From a virus (lineage: Duplodnaviria > Heunggongvirae > Uroviricota > Caudoviricetes), in the IMG/VR virus record IMGVR_UViG_2513237251_000004: a DNA stretch of 64,000 nt; one strand, given 5' to 3'. Shown piece after piece: positions 46,965 to 60,152 of this stretch. A program made the position numbers and the translations under genes. Within the stretch, counting starts at the first letter, position 1. Each line of letters starts with the position of its first letter. The notes below the pieces were generated by a model. The model ran no database searches and had not been told where the DNA came from. It was given only the letters and a program-made list of their open reading frames with translations.

Positions 46965-46988
46965 CCTGTATCCGGTAACCGTTTACTA

Positions 46989-47012
46989 CCCGCTGTGATG
47001 GCGGGTTTTTTA
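46989..47012 (+). terminator. Rho-independent terminator after lom
   Basis: CCCGCTGTGATGGCGGG plus TTTTTTATT. Confidence 0.6.
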
Positions 47013-47795: not shown

Positions 47796-47888
47796 CTGCT
47801 ACAGTTTTCATCATTGTGTTTAAACCAACATTGTAATTCACATTCTGACCCTGCTCCGGCAGGGTTTTTTGTTATCCAGGGGGCCATT

Positions 47889-49265: not shown

Positions 49266-50531
49266 ATGAGCGGATTTGCACAGGGGTTACTTGCCGGATT
49301 CAGCACCGTTGACCAGGCAATGACCCGTCGTAAGGAGCTTGGTCTGCGTGAAGCACAGCTTGCCCGGCAACAGAAAAATAACGAGCGCGATTTTGAGTTT
49401 GCGCAGTCTCAGTTTGAACATAATAAAAACGTTGATCAGCGGAACTTTGATTACAGAGCCAAAGTTGACGACCGTAATTATGCACTGAAGGAGAGGGAGT
49501 TTAACGCTAACCAGAATTACCGGAATGCGTCACTGGGTATGGAGCAGCAGCGACTCCAGTTGCAGAAATACAACCAGCGACGGCTTGAGTATAACGATAT
49601 GATTGCCCATAGCCAGCCACTAATGGAAGCGCTTGGAAAAGCAATTGAGGCTGGCGATCAGGAGGCTGCAACGCGTCTGTTCGGGCAGCTGCCAAAGGGA
49701 CATCCATTAATTCTTATGTCAAACGAAGGCTATGCAGCGAAAGCGGGTCAGGCCGTGATCAACCTGCAAAAAATCTTTGGTGATAAGCCGGACATGGCGA
49801 TCGATTCGCTGAATACCCCGGAAAATCTCGATGTGCTTTCCGGCGTGTTTGCCCCGGAACTACAACAGCGTATTGGCATGCCTGATTCAACCGGGGACAA
49901 AACGATAAAAGAGGCCAGGATTGGCAGTATCGTACCAGCGCAGCAGGAAGGGTACGTACTTATTGGCCTTGATCTCACATACAGCGATGGCTCCACCGCG
50001 CATAAACCTGTAACAGAATACGGCAGTGCGCACCCTGATGATCAAACCGTGCTGGCGATACCCGTTGATAAGGCTATCGCTCAGGTCAGGGATCGCAGCA
50101 AATTTGCAGAGATATCGAAAAATTATGGTTATTTTATGCCGAAGCAGCAGGGACTTTCTCTGAAAGAGCTTCAGAAGGGGGCCAGCAACGTAGCGGCGGA
50201 CGCGATCAAGAATGGCGGTAATGCTCAGGCTGCGGTGGATGAATATTATGCTGCGACTGGTTCACAACCGCATCAACAGAAAATTCAGCAACAAAAACTT
50301 CAGCAACAGGTTATCAACTGGGCGGGAGATGATCCTGACAAGCTGTCATTTGCCAGAAATGTAGCGGCCCGTCAGCCTGAAATGCTGGAACCTCAGAATC
50401 AGAAATTGCTGGAGAACGGGTATGCGAATTTTCTCCGTATTCAAAAGGCCAGGGGGGAACAGGCCAGAGATGAAAGTGCTTCATCTGCATCTCAGTTTAT
50501 CCGTGGACTGAAACAGAATTACGCCCAGTAA
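49266..50531 (+). CDS. Internal virion protein
   Basis: 421-aa ORF followed by terminator. Confidence 0.45.
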   Translation: MSGFAQGLLAGFSTVDQAMTRRKELGLREAQLARQQKNNERDFEFAQSQFEHNKNVDQRNFDYRAKVDDRNYALKEREFNANQNYRNASLGMEQQRLQLQKYNQRRLEYNDMIAHSQPLMEALGKAIEAGDQEAATRLFGQLPKGHPLILMSNEGYAAKAGQAVINLQKIFGDKPDMAIDSLNTPENLDVLSGVFAPELQQRIGMPDSTGDKTIKEARIGSIVPAQQEGYVLIGLDLTYSDGSTAHKPVTEYGSAHPDDQTVLAIPVDKAIAQVRDRSKFAEISKNYGYFMPKQQGLSLKELQKGASNVAADAIKNGGNAQAAVDEYYAATGSQPHQQKIQQQKLQQQVINWAGDDPDKLSFARNVAARQPEMLEPQNQKLLENGYANFLRIQKARGEQARDESASSASQFIRGLKQNYAQ

Positions 50532-50564
50532 TTCACGATATTCCATTAATACCATTTCCTGATG

Positions 50565-50589
50565 CCCGGCCATTGTGCCGGGTTTTTTT
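50565..50589 (+). terminator. Rho-independent terminator preceding the giant gene
   Basis: CCCGGCCATTGTGCCGGG plus TTTTTTT. Confidence 0.55.
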
Positions 50590-50600
50590 ATGGAGTCTGT

Positions 50601-53600
50601 ATGGCCTATTCAGAGGAACAGCGTCCTGAGGCGCAACTCGGTAACCAGAATCGTAACAGCCTGAACATTCAGCAACCCGGCGAAACTGACAGCTATGAAG
50701 CATTTTTCTCTGATCCGAATCGCTGGAAGGATAACAGTACGTCGTTCAGCCTGGGCGATGTATTGCCAACAATGGGTAAAGGTTTCGCCCAGTCCGTCCG
50801 GGGAACAGGGGAAATGGCCCGTGGACTCGGTGATGCGATGATTCAGAGCCCGGTAAAAACAGGGGCGCGTATTTTAAATGAGTTCAGCCGTATGGGGCTG
50901 CCGGGTGTCGCAACTGTGCAGGATATTTTTGCCGGTGGCAGCAGGGGGGCTGATGAGGTCATCGATACCCTGCCTGATGGCAAAAACGCGGTTACTGATA
51001 TTGTCGGTAAAGGTCTGAAGGCAACCGGTAAGGCTGTCAGTGATGGTGCCAAAGCCACTGATGAATGGCTGACCGGTAAGATGTCGCCGGGTGCAGTTCG
51101 TGCGCTGAATACGCCGATGACCGAAGGCTATAATGATTCTGCGGTCTGGGTGGCGAAGGGTGTAAACCTGATTGGTGCGCTTGTACCTGATATGGTTGCT
51201 GGCGGTGTGGCTAGAAAGGTGGGTGATGTCACACTGCGAAAAATGCTGACCGCCGGGCTGGAGAAAAAATACATCGCGGCAGGGATGCAGCCGGAAAGAG
51301 CCACGGCACTGGCAGCAGAAGCTGTCGATAAAAAAATGCCGGATTTATTCCAGGCGGGCCTGATCACCCATTCCACTGTAAGTGCACAGGGGCAGAGTGC
51401 AATGGCGGCAGCAGATGCTGTTCTTAATGCTGATTACTCTGAGCTGGCGCAGTCACCGAAATTTCAGCAGACGTTTTTGTCCATTGACGCCGACCCGCAG
51501 CACGCACAGCTTACTGATCGCCAGAAAATGGATCTGGCAAAAGAGCGTGTTGCCGATGAGGTGCGCGCGCAGCTGGCAACCGATCCTGAATTGCTGGCTG
51601 TGAATGCCATGGCGGCAAAACTGGGTGACGCACAACTGTTTAATCTGGTGACACGAGGCACAGCGAAGACCGTTAAAAGCGGCATTGTCAGAAATGCCAC
51701 GGAACAGGGGGCGATTAATGCGGCGCAGGGCGGCTATTCACGCTATCAGGAAAACACGGCATTGCGTGAGACCGCCGGAATGGGTGTGTCACCGTGGGAG
51801 GGCGTGGCTGACGCAACGATCGAAGGTGCAGCCTTTGGTGCTGCGATGGGGGCTCCATTCGGTGCGGTTGCCGGATATCGTGGCAGACGTCAGGCCGCAG
51901 AAGAAACCGCCATGCGTGATGCTGAAACCGTGCAGCAGGACGACGCAGCCCCGCAACCAGAATCTGTTGATCCGGTGGCGCAGCAGCGTGAATCCATGCA
52001 GGGCATGAATCGCGAGCAGCTTCTGGAGCAGTATGCTGATGCGGATATGGCAACAGAGGGTGACGCATCCGCAGCTCATCGCCGGGAAGCTGCCAGCCAG
52101 TTGTTGAATGAACTGGACGAACAGACGAAGCGACAGGCTGTGATGAATGAGCTGAAGGCGAAGCCGCGTTCTGAACTGCTTGAGGAATACCGCAGACTCA
52201 GCCAGAAAGAGGGGCGCACCGAGACTGAAGAACAACAGTTTCAGGCAATACGAGAAGTCATTCGCCCACAACAGGAAGTGACGCCGGAAGCACAGTCACA
52301 GCCTGAAAATGCGGAGGATGGTAACGGGAGCATTTACCCGACGGTGCGGTTCCGGGACCCGAATGAAGTCCGCATTGAAATTAACGGGAATGGTGCGTCC
52401 AGACCAGCGGAACGCATTGAGAAGGTGCGCCCGGACAACCGTTATTTCACGGATGAGAAAAGCGCCATGGGGAGTGATGTTTTCCGTAATGCCGCCGCCA
52501 CCGGCCTGAAACCGTCCGTAGTGAAGAAAGGCGAGAATCAGTATGCCGTTGAAATGGATAATCCTGCGTTCTCTGAAGATGTGGCAACGGAAACCATTAA
52601 CACCCTGGCTGACGGAGAGCGTATTGCTGATGCTGACCCGATGGAGCAGCCCGCGTTCATGCGTGACCCGCGATTCCGTGGTTTCACGGGGGATGATACG
52701 GAGGTACAGGCCCGCCTTGCCCGTGGCAACGCGCCGACGGCAGAGGAGCTTGTACGTTCACAGATGGCTGAAGGTGATGCCGGTCCGACAGCACAGGAGT
52801 TAACTGAGCGTCCACGCCTGCCCGCTCCCGGCGATATTCATCCCGGACAGGGATATCCGTTACCGGGAGAAGTGGCGCGTACGCCGGATGAAAATCAGGC
52901 CGGACGTGGTGGTCGTTTTACCACAACCGGTGAGGTTAAGGGCCAGAGTTTCCAGAAAGGACAAGCTCCGGCACCGGAAAACGCCGCTGGTCGCCAGGGG
53001 GAAACACTCGAGGGTGACATGGTTCGTCGTGGTCTGCCGTCACCGGATGCGCAGAACGCGACAGCACCGGTACGTGAAGGGCTACCGGCTCCTGACATTG
53101 CGCGTAATGTTCGTATGCCTCAGCCTGAATCACTTCCCCGCACTGTACGGGACTCACTGCCTGAGCTTGCACAGCAGGCAGAAGTACGCCGACAGGCCGG
53201 AGGAAATCGTGACATCCCGCAGCCTGAGACAATCGCACCTGAATCTGAAACAACTGTCTCTACTGACAGGGAAGCTACCGTGCGCGGAGGTGAAGTCAGG
53301 GGCAAAAAAATTGAAGACTTTGGTGAAGAAATTAAGGGCGCGGCAAAACACCGTTATGCACAGCTTGCTGAAACACTGGGTAAAACGCTGGAAGACAGGG
53401 ATTATGCCACGCAGCCGCTGAGCAAACTGTTCCCGAAACCGGACTACGCAAAACTGGCGAACGAAGGTGCTGATGCTGATACCCTGGCAATGATAGCGCT
53501 GTATCGTAGCGATATTCCGGCGAAGACGAAACACAATACGGCAGGCTGGGGGGAGAGCATAAAAAAAGTACGACACAGTGTATCGGAAATGCTGAACGGA

Positions 53601-56600
53601 ACGGTCAGCGCGAAACGCCTCGCAGAATGGATGGAAGGCAGAATGCCCTCCCGTTACGCGGATACCTGGCAACTGTTACGCACTCTGCCACCCTCACAGA
53701 TGGACAGGGCTTCTGCTTATCGGGTGGTATCGGGTGTGTATCAGGCGGCAGGAGGGAAGCGTTACGATCCGCCACAGAAACTTTATTCACTGCGCAATAA
53801 GGACAATAAGGGGAGTAACCTCTTTTTCTCGGAAAGCAGGGATGAATTACTGGCAAAGGCGAAAGTCTGGTTTGCAGAGCAGGAGGAAAAATCACAGGCG
53901 AAAGGTGATGAAAAAACAGCACCGTCACCGGATGACAAAATCCGCTTTGACGTTTACCGGAATACCCGCAGTGGCGATATTTTTATCGCTTACGGTAAAA
54001 ACAAAATGCGGGTGAGAGGTGGCTTTAAGTCAGCCAGTGATGCGCGTAAGTACATTGATTCACATCGTGATGAGCTTGTTCGTCATGTGAAGGAGATGCG
54101 GGAGATTTCGCGTGAGGAGCAGCGCAACGCCACCAACCGCGACCGTACCGGACCAGAACGCCGCAAGGGGAATGTTTCACCGGAGCAGTTCAGTGATGCG
54201 TTTGGTTTCCGTGGTGTGCAGTTTGGTAACTACGTGGAAGGTCCGCGTCGTCAGGCTGATTTGAACCGGGCTTATGACTCGCTGCATGACCTTGCGGAAG
54301 TACTGAATGTACCGACAAAAGCGCTTTCCCTGAACGGTCGTCTTGGCCTGGCATTTGGTGCCCGTGGTAAGGGTAAGGCGGCGGCACACTATGAGTCAGG
54401 TGAGGTGGCAATCAACCTGACAAAAGGTAACGGACCGGGTGCGCTGGCGCACGAATGGTTCCATTCTCTGGATAATTATTTTGGTCGTTATGACGTTTCC
54501 AATGACGGGAAAATTACGTCAGGTGGCGACTTTATGACGGAAGCACAGCGTGTCAGGCGCATATTTAAAGACGGCAGGTATGTTGATGCTGAATATCCGG
54601 TACGTCAGGAGGTTTACGACGCTTTTAAAGGTGTGATTCAGGCCATTAAAAACAGTGACATGCCGCGTCGTTCAGCGCTTCTCGATAAGGTGCGCTCAAA
54701 ACCGTACTGGTCAACGGATGTTGAAATGGCGGCACGTGCCTTTGAGCGTTATGTTCAGGATAAGGCGCGTATGGCTGGCGTGGAGAATGATTATCTGGTC
54801 AATATCCGTAAGGCACCTGAGCACAACACAGATAACACCTACGCTTATCCGACGAATGCGGAACTGGATGGCGGTATTCGTGAGGCATTCGATCACCTGT
54901 TCCGCACCCTGAAAACCCGTGAGACGGACAAGGGCGTTGCGTTTTATTCCCGTAAGGGCGTTACCCGCACACCTGAAGGTAATCTCATTTCGGATGTTAA
55001 CCGTAGTGCGGAAGCCAAAGGCAGCCCGGTCCCGCAGGTTGAAGCGGTTGCCCGTGGCGTGATGAGCGGCATTAAGGACAGTGACCTGAAGGTCCGTGTG
55101 GTGAAGTCACAGAAAGAGGCTGAAGCGCTGGCGGGTGAATTGTTCGATGGTTACGGCAGGGTGCACGCATTCTATCGTCCGGATAAACGAGAAATTGTCC
55201 TGGTGGCGGATAACATCCCTGACGGGCGGACCGTTCGCGAGAAGCTGCGTCACGAGATCATTCACCATGCCATGGAGCATGTTGTCACACCAGCGGAATA
55301 TCAGACGATTATCAAAACCGTGCTGAAAACCCGCGACAGTGATAACGTCACCATCCGTGAAGCCTGGCGTAAGGTTGATGCTTCCTATGGTAAGGAATCA
55401 CCGGAAGTACAGGCGGGTGAATTTCTGGCACATATGGCGGAGAAACAGCCGAATAAATTCGTGGCGGCATGGGAGCGTGTTGTTGCCCTGGTCAAAGGGG
55501 TACTGCGTCGTACGGGGTTACTGAAGCCGACGGAACTGAACGATATCAGACTTGTTCGCGAGACCATCCGTACGTTAGGCCAGCGTGTGCGGGAAGGTTA
55601 CACGCCGCGTGAGGATGGCGCGGGCGCATCGTTTCAGTACTCCCGTAGTGGTAAACGTGATCCGTTCAAAGTGCCGGAAGGTGAGGGCGAGCGTTATCGT
55701 GATGACCTTGCCAGAATGATGAAATCTCTGCGCACCACAGATTTAACGGTAAACATCGGGCGTACGCCGCCGGTATTGCGTCACCTTGGTGCACCGGATT
55801 TGCCGCTGGTTATTTCCCGCGATACTGTGCGGAAGGCCACCAATGGTGTGAAACATGTGGTGCCGATGGATGTTATCGAGAGACTACCGGAACTGATGCA
55901 CGATCCGGATGCAATTTACCGCTCAGCGACAGAAAGAAATGCGGTTGTGATGCTGCTTGATGCCGTGGATAAAAATGGTGATCCGGTGGTGTCAGCGGTA
56001 CACATGAAGGCTGTCCGGTCGCGTCTGGAAATCAACAAGGTAGCTTCTGTTTACGGTACAGAAAATGGAAAAAAACTGAAGAGTATGGAAATGACCGGGT
56101 TAACGTTGTACCGGAGAGAAAAATTAAGCCGCGATAACCTTCTGCACAGAGGGCTCCAATTGCCCAAAGGGGAACATTCTTATCGCGGCTCTGCGGATAA
56201 AATACTCTATCCTGAAGATATTCGCAAGGGGCCGTATTACTCCCGTACCAGCAGTCTGACACCGGAAGAGACAATTGCATCGCGTTTTGTGCGCCAGATG
56301 CAGGATAAATTCCAGGTGCTGAAAGCTGTTCAGGAGAATATCCGTAAAACTGGCGGCAAAGTGGACGACAGTAACAACGCTTATATGGCGGAAGAACTCT
56401 TCCACGGGAAGGCGGAAAACGACCTGAACGTGATGAAGGAGCGCTACGTTCAGCCACTGGCTAAATTACTGGCGGACTACAAAATTGCGCAGGCCGATCT
56501 GGATGAGTACCTCTACGCCCGTCACGCGCCGGAACGTAACGCGCATATCGCGAAAATCAACCCGAAAATGCCGGACGGCGGTTCGGGGATGACCAACGCG

Positions 56601-58982
56601 GAAGCGGCGGAAATCATGCAGCGTGTACGTAACAGTGGCAAACAGGCACAGTATGACCGTCTGGCAGGGATTATTGACGATATGCTGGCCCGTCGCCGTG
56701 AGCTTATCCGTGAGGCCGGACTTGAAGAGAACGGTGTGGTGGATGCCTGGCAGAACGCCTACCGTTACTACGTTCCCCTGAAAGGTCAGGATGTTGACGG
56801 TGTGGTGTCACTGCCCCGTACAGGTAAGGGCTTCACCATCGGCGGACGTGAAAGCAGGCAGGCCATGGGGCGTGCATCCCGGGCACAGTCTCCGTCCACT
56901 CAGGCGATACAGGACCTGAGCGAATCGCTGATCCGCCATCGCAAAAACGAAGTGGGTAACGCCTTCCTGAAACTGGTGCAGGATAATCCCGACAAGGATT
57001 ACTGGCAGGTATTCACCGATGACAGACCGGATACCATGCGGACGATTGCAGAGCGCAAGGACCAGGAAACTGGTGAAACCATTCGCGAAGTTGTCGAACG
57101 CCCTGTACCGATGGCAATGATGGCAGACCGGTACTTCACCACCAAAAAGAACGGCAAAACGTACTACATCAAACTCCATGATCCGCGCCTGATGCGTGCG
57201 ATGAAGAGTATGGGACCGGAAACCAGCAATGCCTTTGTTCGTACGCTGGGGAAAGTTAACCGCTTCCTGGCAACGGTGAACACGTCGTATAACCCGGAAT
57301 TCCTGGTCAGTAACTTCATCCGTGACGTGCAGACGGCGGTGATGAACCTGAAGGCGGAGCAGGGAAGGAGCGACGGTAAACTGAAAGGGCTGGATAACTT
57401 ATCCGCCCTGGCTGTGGTGAAAGACAGCCGTTCTGCCATGTCAGCCGTATACGCCAGTCTGCGTGGTAAAACCCTCACGGGAAAAGGTGCACAGTGGCAG
57501 AAGGTGTGGAAAGAGTTTGTTGAGGACGGAGGGAAAACCGGCTGGTTTAACATGGGTGACCTTGAAGGCCAGCAGAAGGAAATGGATCGCCTTGTCTCAC
57601 TGGCGAAGGGGGGATGGAAAGGCCAGAGTATCGGTGCATGGAATTCGTTCCTTAACCTTGTCGAGGATGCCAACGGTGCGGTTGAAAACGCTCTGCGTCT
57701 TTCTGCCTATAAGCACGCCCGTGATGCCGGTTTGTCACGCCAGCAGGCGGCGTCTCTTGCCAAAAACATGACGGTGAACTTTAACCGTCGTGGTGAGCAG
57801 GGGGCGCTGATGAATTCGCTGTACATGTTCGCCAACGCCAGCATTCAGGGAACGGCAAATCTGGTGAGAACGCTCGGACATCTTAATGGTGAGGGACCTT
57901 TACTGGAGCGCCTTCGCTGGAAGAATCTGAATGTTCCGCAGAAAATCGCGCTTGCCGCTGTGGGAGCAGGTTATCTGCTTGGCTCGCTTAACCGCAGCGT
58001 GGCGGGTGAGGATGATGACGGGGTTAACTGGTATGACAAGGTGCCGTCTCATGTGAAAGAGCGTAACCTCGTCATTATGAAATCGGTGTTCGGGGGCAAG
58101 GCCGGAGAGTACTGGAGTATTCCTCTGCCTTACGGGTACAACGTTTTCTTCCTGCTCGGGCATACTGCTGAAGGTGTGGCGGCGGGTGACCTGACGGCGT
58201 CCCGTGCTGCCGGTAATGTTGTTGGTGGTGTGCTTGGTGCATTCAGCCCGATTGGCAGTGAGACGTCGGAAACACTGTCCGGGGCATTGCTGAAAAATGC
58301 AGCGCCGACCATTCTGCGTCCGTTTGCGAACCTTGCCATGAATGAAAACTTCATGGGGGCGCAGATTTACCAGGAGAACATGCCGTTTGGTACACCAAAA
58401 CCTGACAGCCAGCTGGGAAGACGTTCAACGCCAGAAGCGTACAAGGCGTTTGCATCCTGGCTGAATGCGTTCTCAGGTGGCAGCCAGTACCGTCCCGGCG
58501 CGGTGGATATCACACCGGAATCGCTGAAATTCTGGATTGACTATATCTCCGGAGGGACAGGGCGCTTCATTTCCAAAACCACGGATGCGGCGGTGAAATC
58601 GCTGAATGGTATTGATATACCGGAACAGCAGGTGCCCTTCCTGGGGAAAATTTCGGGGGAGGTGATGCCGTATGCAGACCAGCAGAAGATGTACGACCGG
58701 ATGACAGAGATTGCGCAGTATCACGCAGAGCTGAAGAGTCTGACCGGTGCAGAAAGAACGGCGTTCATTGACGAGAACAACGGAAAATTGTCGATGAACG
58801 GGCTTATGCAGGATACCCGGAAGAGACTGAAGGATTTGCGTAAACAGCGTGATGCCATTTACGCCGACAGTACTCTCAGTCTGGCGCAACAGTCGGCGAT
58901 GGTGAAATCGGTAGAGCGGGATATGAAAATTGCCGTGGATCGGTTTAACCGCGAGTACAACAAAAAAGTGGGAGTGGATTAA
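50601..58982 (+). CDS. Giant virion-associated protein (2793 aa) with internal HExxH zincin-like motif
   Basis: ATG at 50601 after terminator with GGAG RBS; uninterrupted frame of 8.4 kb; GALAHEWFHSLDNYFG near residue 1290. Confidence 0.65.
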   Translation: MAYSEEQRPEAQLGNQNRNSLNIQQPGETDSYEAFFSDPNRWKDNSTSFSLGDVLPTMGKGFAQSVRGTGEMARGLGDAMIQSPVKTGARILNEFSRMGLPGVATVQDIFAGGSRGADEVIDTLPDGKNAVTDIVGKGLKATGKAVSDGAKATDEWLTGKMSPGAVRALNTPMTEGYNDSAVWVAKGVNLIGALVPDMVAGGVARKVGDVTLRKMLTAGLEKKYIAAGMQPERATALAAEAVDKKMPDLFQAGLITHSTVSAQGQSAMAAADAVLNADYSELAQSPKFQQTFLSIDADPQHAQLTDRQKMDLAKERVADEVRAQLATDPELLAVNAMAAKLGDAQLFNLVTRGTAKTVKSGIVRNATEQGAINAAQGGYSRYQENTALRETAGMGVSPWEGVADATIEGAAFGAAMGAPFGAVAGYRGRRQAAEETAMRDAETVQQDDAAPQPESVDPVAQQRESMQGMNREQLLEQYADADMATEGDASAAHRREAASQLLNELDEQTKRQAVMNELKAKPRSELLEEYRRLSQKEGRTETEEQQFQAIREVIRPQQEVTPEAQSQPENAEDGNGSIYPTVRFRDPNEVRIEINGNGASRPAERIEKVRPDNRYFTDEKSAMGSDVFRNAAATGLKPSVVKKGENQYAVEMDNPAFSEDVATETINTLADGERIADADPMEQPAFMRDPRFRGFTGDDTEVQARLARGNAPTAEELVRSQMAEGDAGPTAQELTERPRLPAPGDIHPGQGYPLPGEVARTPDENQAGRGGRFTTTGEVKGQSFQKGQAPAPENAAGRQGETLEGDMVRRGLPSPDAQNATAPVREGLPAPDIARNVRMPQPESLPRTVRDSLPELAQQAEVRRQAGGNRDIPQPETIAPESETTVSTDREATVRGGEVRGKKIEDFGEEIKGAAKHRYAQLAETLGKTLEDRDYATQPLSKLFPKPDYAKLANEGADADTLAMIALYRSDIPAKTKHNTAGWGESIKKVRHSVSEMLNGTVSAKRLAEWMEGRMPSRYADTWQLLRTLPPSQMDRASAYRVVSGVYQAAGGKRYDPPQKLYSLRNKDNKGSNLFFSESRDELLAKAKVWFAEQEEKSQAKGDEKTAPSPDDKIRFDVYRNTRSGDIFIAYGKNKMRVRGGFKSASDARKYIDSHRDELVRHVKEMREISREEQRNATNRDRTGPERRKGNVSPEQFSDAFGFRGVQFGNYVEGPRRQADLNRAYDSLHDLAEVLNVPTKALSLNGRLGLAFGARGKGKAAAHYESGEVAINLTKGNGPGALAHEWFHSLDNYFGRYDVSNDGKITSGGDFMTEAQRVRRIFKDGRYVDAEYPVRQEVYDAFKGVIQAIKNSDMPRRSALLDKVRSKPYWSTDVEMAARAFERYVQDKARMAGVENDYLVNIRKAPEHNTDNTYAYPTNAELDGGIREAFDHLFRTLKTRETDKGVAFYSRKGVTRTPEGNLISDVNRSAEAKGSPVPQVEAVARGVMSGIKDSDLKVRVVKSQKEAEALAGELFDGYGRVHAFYRPDKREIVLVADNIPDGRTVREKLRHEIIHHAMEHVVTPAEYQTIIKTVLKTRDSDNVTIREAWRKVDASYGKESPEVQAGEFLAHMAEKQPNKFVAAWERVVALVKGVLRRTGLLKPTELNDIRLVRETIRTLGQRVREGYTPREDGAGASFQYSRSGKRDPFKVPEGEGERYRDDLARMMKSLRTTDLTVNIGRTPPVLRHLGAPDLPLVISRDTVRKATNGVKHVVPMDVIERLPELMHDPDAIYRSATERNAVVMLLDAVDKNGDPVVSAVHMKAVRSRLEINKVASVYGTENGKKLKSMEMTGLTLYRREKLSRDNLLHRGLQLPKGEHSYRGSADKILYPEDIRKGPYYSRTSSLTPEETIASRFVRQMQDKFQVLKAVQENIRKTGGKVDDSNNAYMAEELFHGKAENDLNVMKERYVQPLAKLLADYKIAQADLDEYLYARHAPERNAHIAKINPKMPDGGSGMTNAEAAEIMQRVRNSGKQAQYDRLAGIIDDMLARRRELIREAGLEENGVVDAWQNAYRYYVPLKGQDVDGVVSLPRTGKGFTIGGRESRQAMGRASRAQSPSTQAIQDLSESLIRHRKNEVGNAFLKLVQDNPDKDYWQVFTDDRPDTMRTIAERKDQETGETIREVVERPVPMAMMADRYFTTKKNGKTYYIKLHDPRLMRAMKSMGPETSNAFVRTLGKVNRFLATVNTSYNPEFLVSNFIRDVQTAVMNLKAEQGRSDGKLKGLDNLSALAVVKDSRSAMSAVYASLRGKTLTGKGAQWQKVWKEFVEDGGKTGWFNMGDLEGQQKEMDRLVSLAKGGWKGQSIGAWNSFLNLVEDANGAVENALRLSAYKHARDAGLSRQQAASLAKNMTVNFNRRGEQGALMNSLYMFANASIQGTANLVRTLGHLNGEGPLLERLRWKNLNVPQKIALAAVGAGYLLGSLNRSVAGEDDDGVNWYDKVPSHVKERNLVIMKSVFGGKAGEYWSIPLPYGYNVFFLLGHTAEGVAAGDLTASRAAGNVVGGVLGAFSPIGSETSETLSGALLKNAAPTILRPFANLAMNENFMGAQIYQENMPFGTPKPDSQLGRRSTPEAYKAFASWLNAFSGGSQYRPGAVDITPESLKFWIDYISGGTGRFISKTTDAAVKSLNGIDIPEQQVPFLGKISGEVMPYADQQKMYDRMTEIAQYHAELKSLTGAERTAFIDENNGKLSMNGLMQDTRKRLKDLRKQRDAIYADSTLSLAQQSAMVKSVERDMKIAVDRFNREYNKKVGVD

Positions 58983-59996: not shown

Positions 59997-60152
59997 TTAC
60001 TTCTCAGATTCGTAGTCTACGAAGACAGCGACCTCCGTCTGACCGGTTCGGATTCGCACCTCGCAGAGGTCTTTCCTCGTTACCAGTGCCGTCACTATGA
60101 CGGTTAAACAGATGACGATCAGGGCGATTAACATCGCCTTTTGCTGCTTCAT
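59997..60152 (-). CDS. hok: Hok-family type I toxin
   Basis: MKQQKAMLIALIVICLTVIVTALVTRKDLCEVRIRTGQTEVAVF... from ATG at 60152 with AAGGAG RBS; near-identical to HokC/Gef. Confidence 0.8.
   Translation of the reverse strand: MKQQKAMLIALIVICLTVIVTALVTRKDLCEVRIRTGQTEVAVFVDYESEK

Follow-up and report, generated by a model that had tools for sequence, protein, structure and literature searches.

Phages of the 933W type carry the Shiga toxin (Stx) genes of enterohaemorrhagic Escherichia coli (EHEC), and they also carry one giant gene that is essential. What kind of protein does this gene encode, and what are the peptidase-like motifs inside it for? The question is raised here by a stretch of 64,000 nucleotides (IMG/VR record IMGVR_UViG_2513237251_000004, hereafter the window), which is essentially the 933W prophage. 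A first-pass annotation, made from the letters alone, had described a giant virion-associated protein with an internal HExxH motif and had proposed that it might be a metallopeptidase. The observation is correct and its interpretation is supported by the analysis below. As given it is also a rediscovery, since publications and annotations already contain the protein, its family and the predicted peptidase: the HExxH domain has been predicted as CLCA_X or MPTase before (Lenart 2013; Iyer 2017), and the RefSeq product name is already "LPD5 domain-containing protein". What is new is a second conserved zincin-like domain, the reassignment of LPD1 to the first zincin, an avoidance of cysteine across the whole family, and a conserved motif at the junctions between modules. 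Taken as a whole, the protein is almost certainly the polyvalent virion protein of Stx phages.

The two HExxH sites

The peptide that had been singled out as a candidate metallopeptidase site, GALAHEWFHSLDNYFG, is present in the protein, and its HEWFH occupies residues 1284-1288 (nt 54450-54464). Given the composition of this protein, chance alone would yield 0.035 HExxH motifs; the protein has two (at 1284 and 1551). The first reading noted only the motif at 1284 and missed the one at 1551. A search with residues 1181-1445 gave 403 homologues. In a conservation set of 73 homologues with <70% identity and full coverage, residues H1284, E1285, H1288, D1291, H1263 and E1375 (the last at nt 54723-54725) are 96-100% conserved, D1291 standing at 96%. 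The domain resembles CLCA_X (NCBIfam NF041907), a predicted metalloprotease family found mostly on phages and plasmids, with the consensus HExxHxxxD (Lenart et al. 2013, PLoS One). This model matches residues 1182-1437 over its positions 3-245 of 250 (E 9.1e-44, 149.8 bits), and the stretch HEWFHSLD carries the family signature, the HExxH followed by an Asp (D1291). The score of 149.8 bits does not reach the curated cut-off of 260 bits, and judged by its sequence the domain is a domain-level relative of CLCA_X, not a member of the stand-alone subfamily. The same residues fit the pattern given for the phage-type MPTase, in which a conserved His ends strand 2 and an Asp lies three residues past the HExxH (Iyer 2017, PMC5512222).

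An AlphaFold model of residues 1041-1450 (LPD5 included, 61 sequences, mean pLDDT 87.6) runs from a helix through three strands to the HExxH helix and on to a later helix with the invariant E1375, which is the order of a gluzincin fold. The closest solved folds include MtfA, anthrax lethal factor, Pro-Pro endopeptidase (PPEP) and thermolysin. An insert of 87 residues separates the HExxH from the conserved Glu; the third zinc ligand is likely either D1291 or E1375, with H1263 in the catalytic set. On this model, what Pfam calls LPD1 seems to form the C-terminal half of the zincin and not an independent domain. At the sequence level, neither the whole protein nor either zincin profile gave a usable match when compared with all PDB chains. 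Domain searches and structure prediction thus give a zincin fold around a motif that is conserved in homologues, as the first reading had proposed, and not purely structural folds around an unconserved one. Zincin 1 is very probably a genuine zincin domain, with a predicted peptidase activity.

The second site, HEIIHH, is at residues 1551-1556 (nt 55251-55268), in a domain that lies 180 residues beyond the first; no other module is shared so widely among the hundreds of giant homologues. When residues 1441-1750 were searched exhaustively against 1.8 billion representatives, 423 matches were found at E<=0.001, most of them in proteins 1000-6000 residues long. Residues H1551, E1552, H1555 and E1607 (nt 55419-55421) are 99-100% invariant in 143 distant giant homologues with about 25-45% identity. 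In the raw sequences the motif reads HExxxH in 142 of 149 cases, and the HEIIHH of 933W satisfies both the HExxH and the HExxxH spacing; an HEXXXH set is mentioned among the MPTases of polyvalent proteins by Iyer 2017 (PMC5512222). A model of residues 1461-1690 (pLDDT 82.5) again has a helix, strands, a motif helix and a later helix with the Glu. Foldseek found nothing in the PDB at E<=0.001 for this model (the best hit was MATCAP, E 0.056), and there is no Pfam family over the domain. When six segments were searched separately with Pfam at E up to 5, only sub-threshold hints came up, namely Gly-zippers and a Peptidase_M76 match (E 0.2) over the second HExxH. Domain 2 is a probable but not a secure zincin. 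The possibility that the two zincins are a duplication was considered and rejected, as hhalign of the two profiles shows no relationship.

A modular chain and its junction motif

Polyvalent proteins were defined, together with the LPD families, by Iyer, Burroughs, Anand, de Souza and Aravind (2017, J Bacteriol, PMC5512222). The 933W protein has their features: several unrelated globular domains, LPDs among them, are joined in one very large chain, and the gene has a late, virion-type position. LPD5, LPD1, MuF_C and LPD38 all score far above their Pfam cut-offs (LPD38 with E 7.8e-48). When 125 giant homologues were mapped onto the protein, it fell into blocks consisting of an N-terminal module, a variable linker, LPD5 with zincin 1, zincin 2, MuF_C, and a C-terminal region ending in LPD38 (Table 1). 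Zincin 2 is common to all 125 because it was the search query. One PHROGs family, phrog_616, covers the whole protein end to end.

The N-terminal module, which phrog_37568 matches over aa 170-439, has a segment of weak hydrophobicity (181-199) and a stretch resembling a glycine zipper (406-433); a hydropathy scan found no strong membrane-spanning segment, the best being 181-199 with a mean hydropathy of 1.38. LPD5 is listed as possibly enzymatic, and MuF_C is placed in the RNase-like PBECR fold, which is not a peptidase (Iyer 2017, PMC5512222). Membership of MuF_C is clear from Pfam; its catalytic competence as an RNase-like module is only predicted. Directly upstream of it a KATNGVKH stretch recurs in homologues. 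The C-terminal module of ~900 aa matches the C-terminal ends of phrog_14770, phrog_10691 and phrog_10089, with the "DarB-like antirestriction" family among these. By tblastn it is also found in phages of Vibrio, Ralstonia and Burkholderia (BcepIL02 "DarB-like"), and more weakly in phages of Bacteroides and Bacillus. Other cargo that is joined with zincin 2 in homologues includes an SNF2-type helicase, an inorganic pyrophosphatase and LPD39.

Table 1. Features of the giant gene and its protein; nucleotide positions are those of the window.
Feature	Residues (aa)	Nucleotides	Strand	Remarks
Giant gene		50601..58982	+	2793 aa + stop; 8382 bases; 933W L0134 / ST933Wp72; corresponds to Sp5 ORF80 (ECs1242) and phi24B gp47
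Intrinsic-terminator-like hairpin		50564..50589	+	stem GCCCGGC, loop CATTGT, stem GCCGGGT (50564-50583), then T7
Shine-Dalgarno GGAG		50592..50595	+	5 nt 5' of ATG 50601 (read from the sequence)
N-terminal conserved module	~150-480	51048..52040	+	common to up to 48/125 giant homologues
E/Q/P/A-rich low-complexity linker	~481-900	52041..53300	+	variable; shared with only 1-14/125 homologues
LPD5 domain	1051-1200	53751..54200	+	Pfam PF18799, E 6.5e-45
Zincin domain 1 (MPTase-1, CLCA_X-like)	1182-1440	54144..54920	+	C-terminal part corresponds to Pfam LPD1 (aa 1361-1440)
Junction motif 1, VAFYSR	1446-1451	54936..54953	+	follows a TDKG turn; block boundary peak at aa 1461
Zincin-like domain 2 (MPTase-2)	~1470-1670	55008..55610	+	HEIIHH 1551-1556, E1607
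Junction motif 2, FQYSR	1678-1682	55632..55646	+	strongest boundary peak in the protein, aa 1674-1675
MuF_C domain	1750-1839	55848..56117	+	Pfam PF18819, E 1.3e-17, 64.2 bits against a cut-off of 27.6
Junction motif 3, PYYSR	1878-1882	56232..56246	+	boundary peak at aa 1876
C-terminal ~900-aa module	1898-2793	56292..58979	+	contains LPD38 (aa 2476-2681, nt 58026-58643)

Between these modules a short motif is repeated. There are three YSR sites in the protein (1448-1451, 1679-1682 and 1879-1882), and they coincide with its three strongest homology-block boundaries, as obtained from an all-against-all comparison by BLASTP. Among relatives, 42 of 127 homologues have a strict [FYLMIV][FY]S[RKQ] at a fixed -91 relative to the leading His of zincin 2; the remaining sequence of these proteins gives an expectation of 2.4%. 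When 128 sequences are aligned, the columns of this upstream motif hold [FY] in 86%, S in 80% and [RKQ] in 76%, and the neighbouring columns are variable. On the downstream side, 73 of 134 homologues have [FY]S[RKQ] at +120 to +140, counted from the motif His (7.9% expected). Motif sites far from zincin 2 also tend to lie at block boundaries (27%, compared with 5.4% of random sites; Mann-Whitney p about 1e-6), and after MuF_C a DIRKxxx[LY]YSR recurs in homologues. Where zincin 2 is stand-alone or N-terminal, the sequence starts with Met just past the place of the upstream motif, and only a degenerate QF[PHQR] is found at the downstream place. Closely related proteins differ by whole cassettes exactly at the motifs. 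As an example, one of the two Salmonella-type homologues P0145 and P0130 has an extra module (a phosphoribosyltransferase according to NCBI) right after TDKGVAFYSR. In a similar case, the E. coli variants P0127 and P0141 carry another MuF_C cassette in the stretch from QYSR to YYSR, and their flanks are almost the same. The main text of Iyer 2017 (PMC5512222) is silent on any motif for junctions or cleavage, and a literature search found no experimental paper on the processing of polyvalent proteins.

The chain has one further property that extends over the family. There is no cysteine among its 2793 residues, and 105 of 128 giant homologues are cysteine-free as well (median 0%). TerL, the portal and NanS-p of the same phage have 0.8-1.4% cysteine. 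The virion RNA polymerase of phage N4 (gp50; L002:9524-20026) likewise has none in 3500 residues. Such avoidance would fit a protein that is unfolded, passes a narrow channel and crosses the oxidising periplasm. Other cysteine-free late proteins in this phage are encoded by ORFs of 335, 421, 422 and 645 aa.

Possible roles of the giant protein

Two close relatives have been studied experimentally. Mondal et al. (2016) deleted ORF80 of Sp5 (ECs1242, 2,793 aa) and found that DNA was still packaged in DNase-resistant heads. The particles were not bound by tail-fibre antibody and infectivity was lost; the gene is essential, and complementation in trans works. The authors concluded that ORF80 takes part in tail assembly and, citing a COG1483 match, suggested an AAA+ ATPase. 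In the 933W protein there is no Walker A motif ([AG]xxxxGK[ST]) anywhere, and Pfam and NCBIfam searches gave no ATPase family, so the AAA+ label is without support. The other relative is gp47 of phi24B, whose size and Pfam domains match those of the 933W protein; over the last 643 aa of the latter the identity of the phi24B genome is 98.6%. According to a 2026 preprint, gp47, which has the same domains, is abundant in purified virions by mass spectrometry but is missing from the pictures taken by cryo-EM and by negative staining, and it was proposed to be an encapsidated ejection protein. Its length is given there as 2811 aa in one passage and as ">3,000" in another. The preprint assigns the metallopeptidase to "MuF-C", which looks mislabelled because of the RNase-like fold given to that domain in the 2017 survey (PMC5512222). 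Two published annotations are corrected in this way.

The reading that we favour, and consider somewhat probable, is that of a cysteine-free chain of modules which is packed in the capsid, most likely leaves with the DNA, and processes itself at its junctions. The protein would be made late from a Q-antiterminated operon and then encapsidated. One or both peptidases would cut the three [FY]-S-[RK] junctions, either in the head or after entry, and so free the cargo (an N-terminal part with LPD5 and MPTase-1, then MPTase-2, then the RNase-like MuF_C module) from the C-terminal module. For the latter, which the giants of Burkholderia, Ralstonia and Vibrio phages have as well, a role in incorporation or ejection is probable in this particle type, and such a role would make sense of the Sp5 deletion phenotype. 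Both autoprocessing by the MPTase and delivery with the DNA were predicted for polyvalent proteins in general (Iyer 2017, PMC5512222). The individual parts of this reading carry different weights. That the junction motif is a cleavage site for the built-in peptidase or peptidases is possible, though on present evidence we would not call it probable. We are slightly more tentative still about a true polyprotein, in which zincin 2 would excise itself and free its neighbours at [FY]-S-[RK], with the same junctions as the seams at which cassettes are swapped. As to an action in the host after ejection, which the first-pass annotation had suggested, we infer it only. Several points weigh against the favoured reading. 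No cleavage has been observed. The N4 virion RNA polymerase carries an MPTase and yet is packaged unprocessed (Iyer 2017, PMC5512222), and the tail-less phenotype of the Sp5 deletion (Mondal 2016) is that of a structural or assembly role, which a cargo model alone does not explain. The AlphaFold model of zincin 1 places 1447-1449 in the second strand of the small hairpin at its end, so the junction motif may be a structural strand or domain cap and not a substrate. A related idea, that the virion zincins process NanS-p (24752-26689), a 645-aa esterase, was dropped: the phi24B preprint reports that this capsid decoration protein is cleaved near residue 57, where there is no [FY]S[RK], and it describes self-processing.

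Much of the same evidence can be read differently. The giant protein might stay intact, like the N4 polymerase, with its zincins as effectors that cleave host proteins (of defence or of the envelope, for example) in the manner of anthrax lethal factor. This is unlikely in our estimate. In its favour, the closest solved folds of zincin 1 include lethal factor and the Pro-Pro endopeptidases, which cut other proteins, and Iyer 2017 (PMC5512222) lists such a role as possible and has N4 vRNAP, ArdC and TraC1 transferred unprocessed. No host target is known, and an intact effector leaves unexplained why [FY]-S-[RK] brackets MPTase-2 at fixed distances, marks the junctions and is lost where the domain stands alone. 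Both roles could hold at once. The phi24B preprint put forward another role, in which the peptidase digests peptidoglycan and lets the giant protein build a conduit across the periplasm. A wall-breaching activity is needed somewhere, and no lysozyme or transglycosylase domain was found by Pfam in the protein. Even so this reading is improbable, as the preprint puts the peptidase in MuF-C, which is RNase-like PBECR according to Iyer 2017 (PMC5512222). The zincin domains are moreover similar to protein endo- and aminopeptidases (MtfA, lethal factor, PPEP, thermolysin), and the protein has no strong transmembrane segment. Cell-wall peptidases usually belong to M15/M23/LAS or NlpC/P60, and not to the HExxH gluzincins.

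For a tail-assembly factor or a morphogenetic ATPase that is not cargo at all, as Mondal 2016 read the data, there are the DNA-filled heads without binding of tail-fibre antibody and the cited COG1483 AAA+ match. We regard it as quite improbable in view of the missing Walker A motif and ATPase families, the abundance of the phi24B protein in finished virions and a family signature that is that of polyvalent proteins; a protein inside the head that has to sit by the portal could also be required for the tail to attach. Lastly, HExxH arises by chance in many proteins (Lenart 2013), and the motif could in principle be such a match in a purely structural protein. Two sites were found where a small fraction of one was expected, distant homologues keep both nearly invariant along with a downstream Glu, and zincin 1 models as a zincin. 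Conservation of both motifs and the fold of zincin 1 refute the chance reading, to which we leave practically no weight.

The favoured reading, with self-processing at the junctions, would matter beyond this phage. Should the junction motif prove to be a site of processing, it would account for the release of differently targeted modules from polyvalent proteins, which was only postulated in the 2017 survey, and it would apply to hundreds of giant proteins across phages of many hosts. A polyprotein would further mean a defined processing code and a rule by which polyvalent proteins are built and diversified. The two intact zincin sites are direct experimental handles.

The gene, its surroundings and its relatives

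At the DNA level the giant gene is 100% identical to L0134 of phage 933W and about 100% to VT2-Sakai (Sp5), and 186 Stx-phage records match it with at least 90% identity. It takes up about 14% of the genome and encodes a protein of 305 kDa. The single uninterrupted reading frame of 2793 aa reported in the first pass is confirmed on the + strand, from ATG 50601. The open frame itself extends over 50562..58982 (+), giving 2806 aa when counted from the first ATG, and the coding sequence in the RefSeq 933W record begins there, at ATG 50562, overlapping the terminator hairpin. ATG 50601 is the better start because GGAG lies 5 nt upstream of it and ATG 50562 overlaps the hairpin. The resulting 2793 aa equal the length reported for Sp5 ORF80.

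The hairpin (50564-50583) lies between the stop of the upstream 421-aa gene at 50531 and the giant gene. With 7 pairs, 6 of them G-C, and a following T-run it is a good match to the intrinsic terminator consensus, and it is kept in both the minimum free energy and the centroid structure of the RNA fold, which bears out the earlier remark about a terminator ahead of the gene. In lambdoid phages the late operon is transcribed by a Q-modified, terminator-resistant polymerase. By analogy the hairpin would function as a terminator that is read through by this polymerase, a reasonable inference because the consensus terminator and lambdoid late-operon biology point the same way. More terminator-like hairpins are found on the + strand at 46988-47006 and 47847-47866, within the late cluster upstream of the giant gene and in the neighbourhood of the lom/bor-like moron genes. 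The giant gene is overlapped by antisense ORFs of up to 172 aa. These had been dismissed as spurious, which is supported: the virion mass spectrometry of phi24B gp47 favours the long + strand frame. The old GenBank record AP004402.1 has 19 small "hypothetical proteins" annotated under its match to the giant gene, which fits.

The rightward (+) late cluster ends with the giant gene, which has the tail-fibre, lom and bor-like genes upstream of it, and the GC skew is positive over the late region. The gene before it (49266-50531, 421 aa; Sp5 ORF79 / ST933Wp71) encodes a cysteine-free protein and is separated from it only by the terminator hairpin. In Sp5, ORF79 is essential and was assigned to tail assembly (Mondal 2016); its product may work together with the giant protein. 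Just downstream (~59997-60271; 933W 58460-58734), on the opposite strand, the 933W annotation has a toxin-antisense RNA locus of the hok/sok type, hokW/mokW/sokW, and also a YgiW-like OB-fold gene.

Several known systems resemble parts of the giant protein. CLCA_X is matched nearly end to end, with the HExxH-plus-Asp, and this family is often found in very long proteins. Its cut-off of 260 was set for stand-alone proteins of ~250 aa, whereas the 933W domain is embedded in a 2793-aa chain; no biochemical test of a CLCA_X member is reported in the literature examined. The gluzincins lethal factor, MtfA and Pro-Pro endopeptidase share the fold with zincin 1 at only 11-14% sequence identity, without a sequence-level match to solved structures. 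The DarB-like giants of Bcep22-like and Ralstonia podophages (Bcep22 gp75, JC1 gp69, BcepIL02) share the C-terminal module over about aa 2150-2680, including LPD38. JC1 gp69 was found in virions by mass spectrometry, and the portal, capsid and head-closure proteins of JC1 are homologous to those of 933W (JC1 paper). Of phrog_10089 only the C-terminal end matches the 933W protein, in which Pfam and NCBIfam found no DNA methyltransferase or helicase module. "DarB-like antirestriction" therefore does not describe it.

The N4 virion RNA polymerase, likewise giant, cysteine-free and from a phage with a short tail, is packed in the head and injected, and it has an MPTase according to Iyer 2017 (PMC5512222). 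The 933W protein differs in having no RNA polymerase module, and the N4 enzyme is reportedly packaged unprocessed. Homology to gp50 was rejected, as phmmer and four profiles, those of both zincin domains included, gave nothing significant, and the resemblance is one of functional analogy only. The self-excising proteases of viral polyproteins (picornavirus 3C, retroviral protease) also offer an analogy only, that of a protease module with its own recognition motif on either side, inside a chain of several modules; they are of another catalytic class without homology, and cleavage in the 933W protein is only proposed.

The polyvalent proteins of Iyer 2017 (PMC5512222) are giant late-virion polypeptides with LPD5, LPD1, MuF_C and LPD38 and with zincin-like MPTase "hub" domains, as is the 933W protein. 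The main text of that survey does not include 933W or Stx phages, and in 933W LPD1 appears to be part of the first zincin rather than a separate domain. Of the MPTase variants described there, the one with a His and HExxH-Asp occurs in the 933W protein, and the one with HEXXXH is probably present as well.

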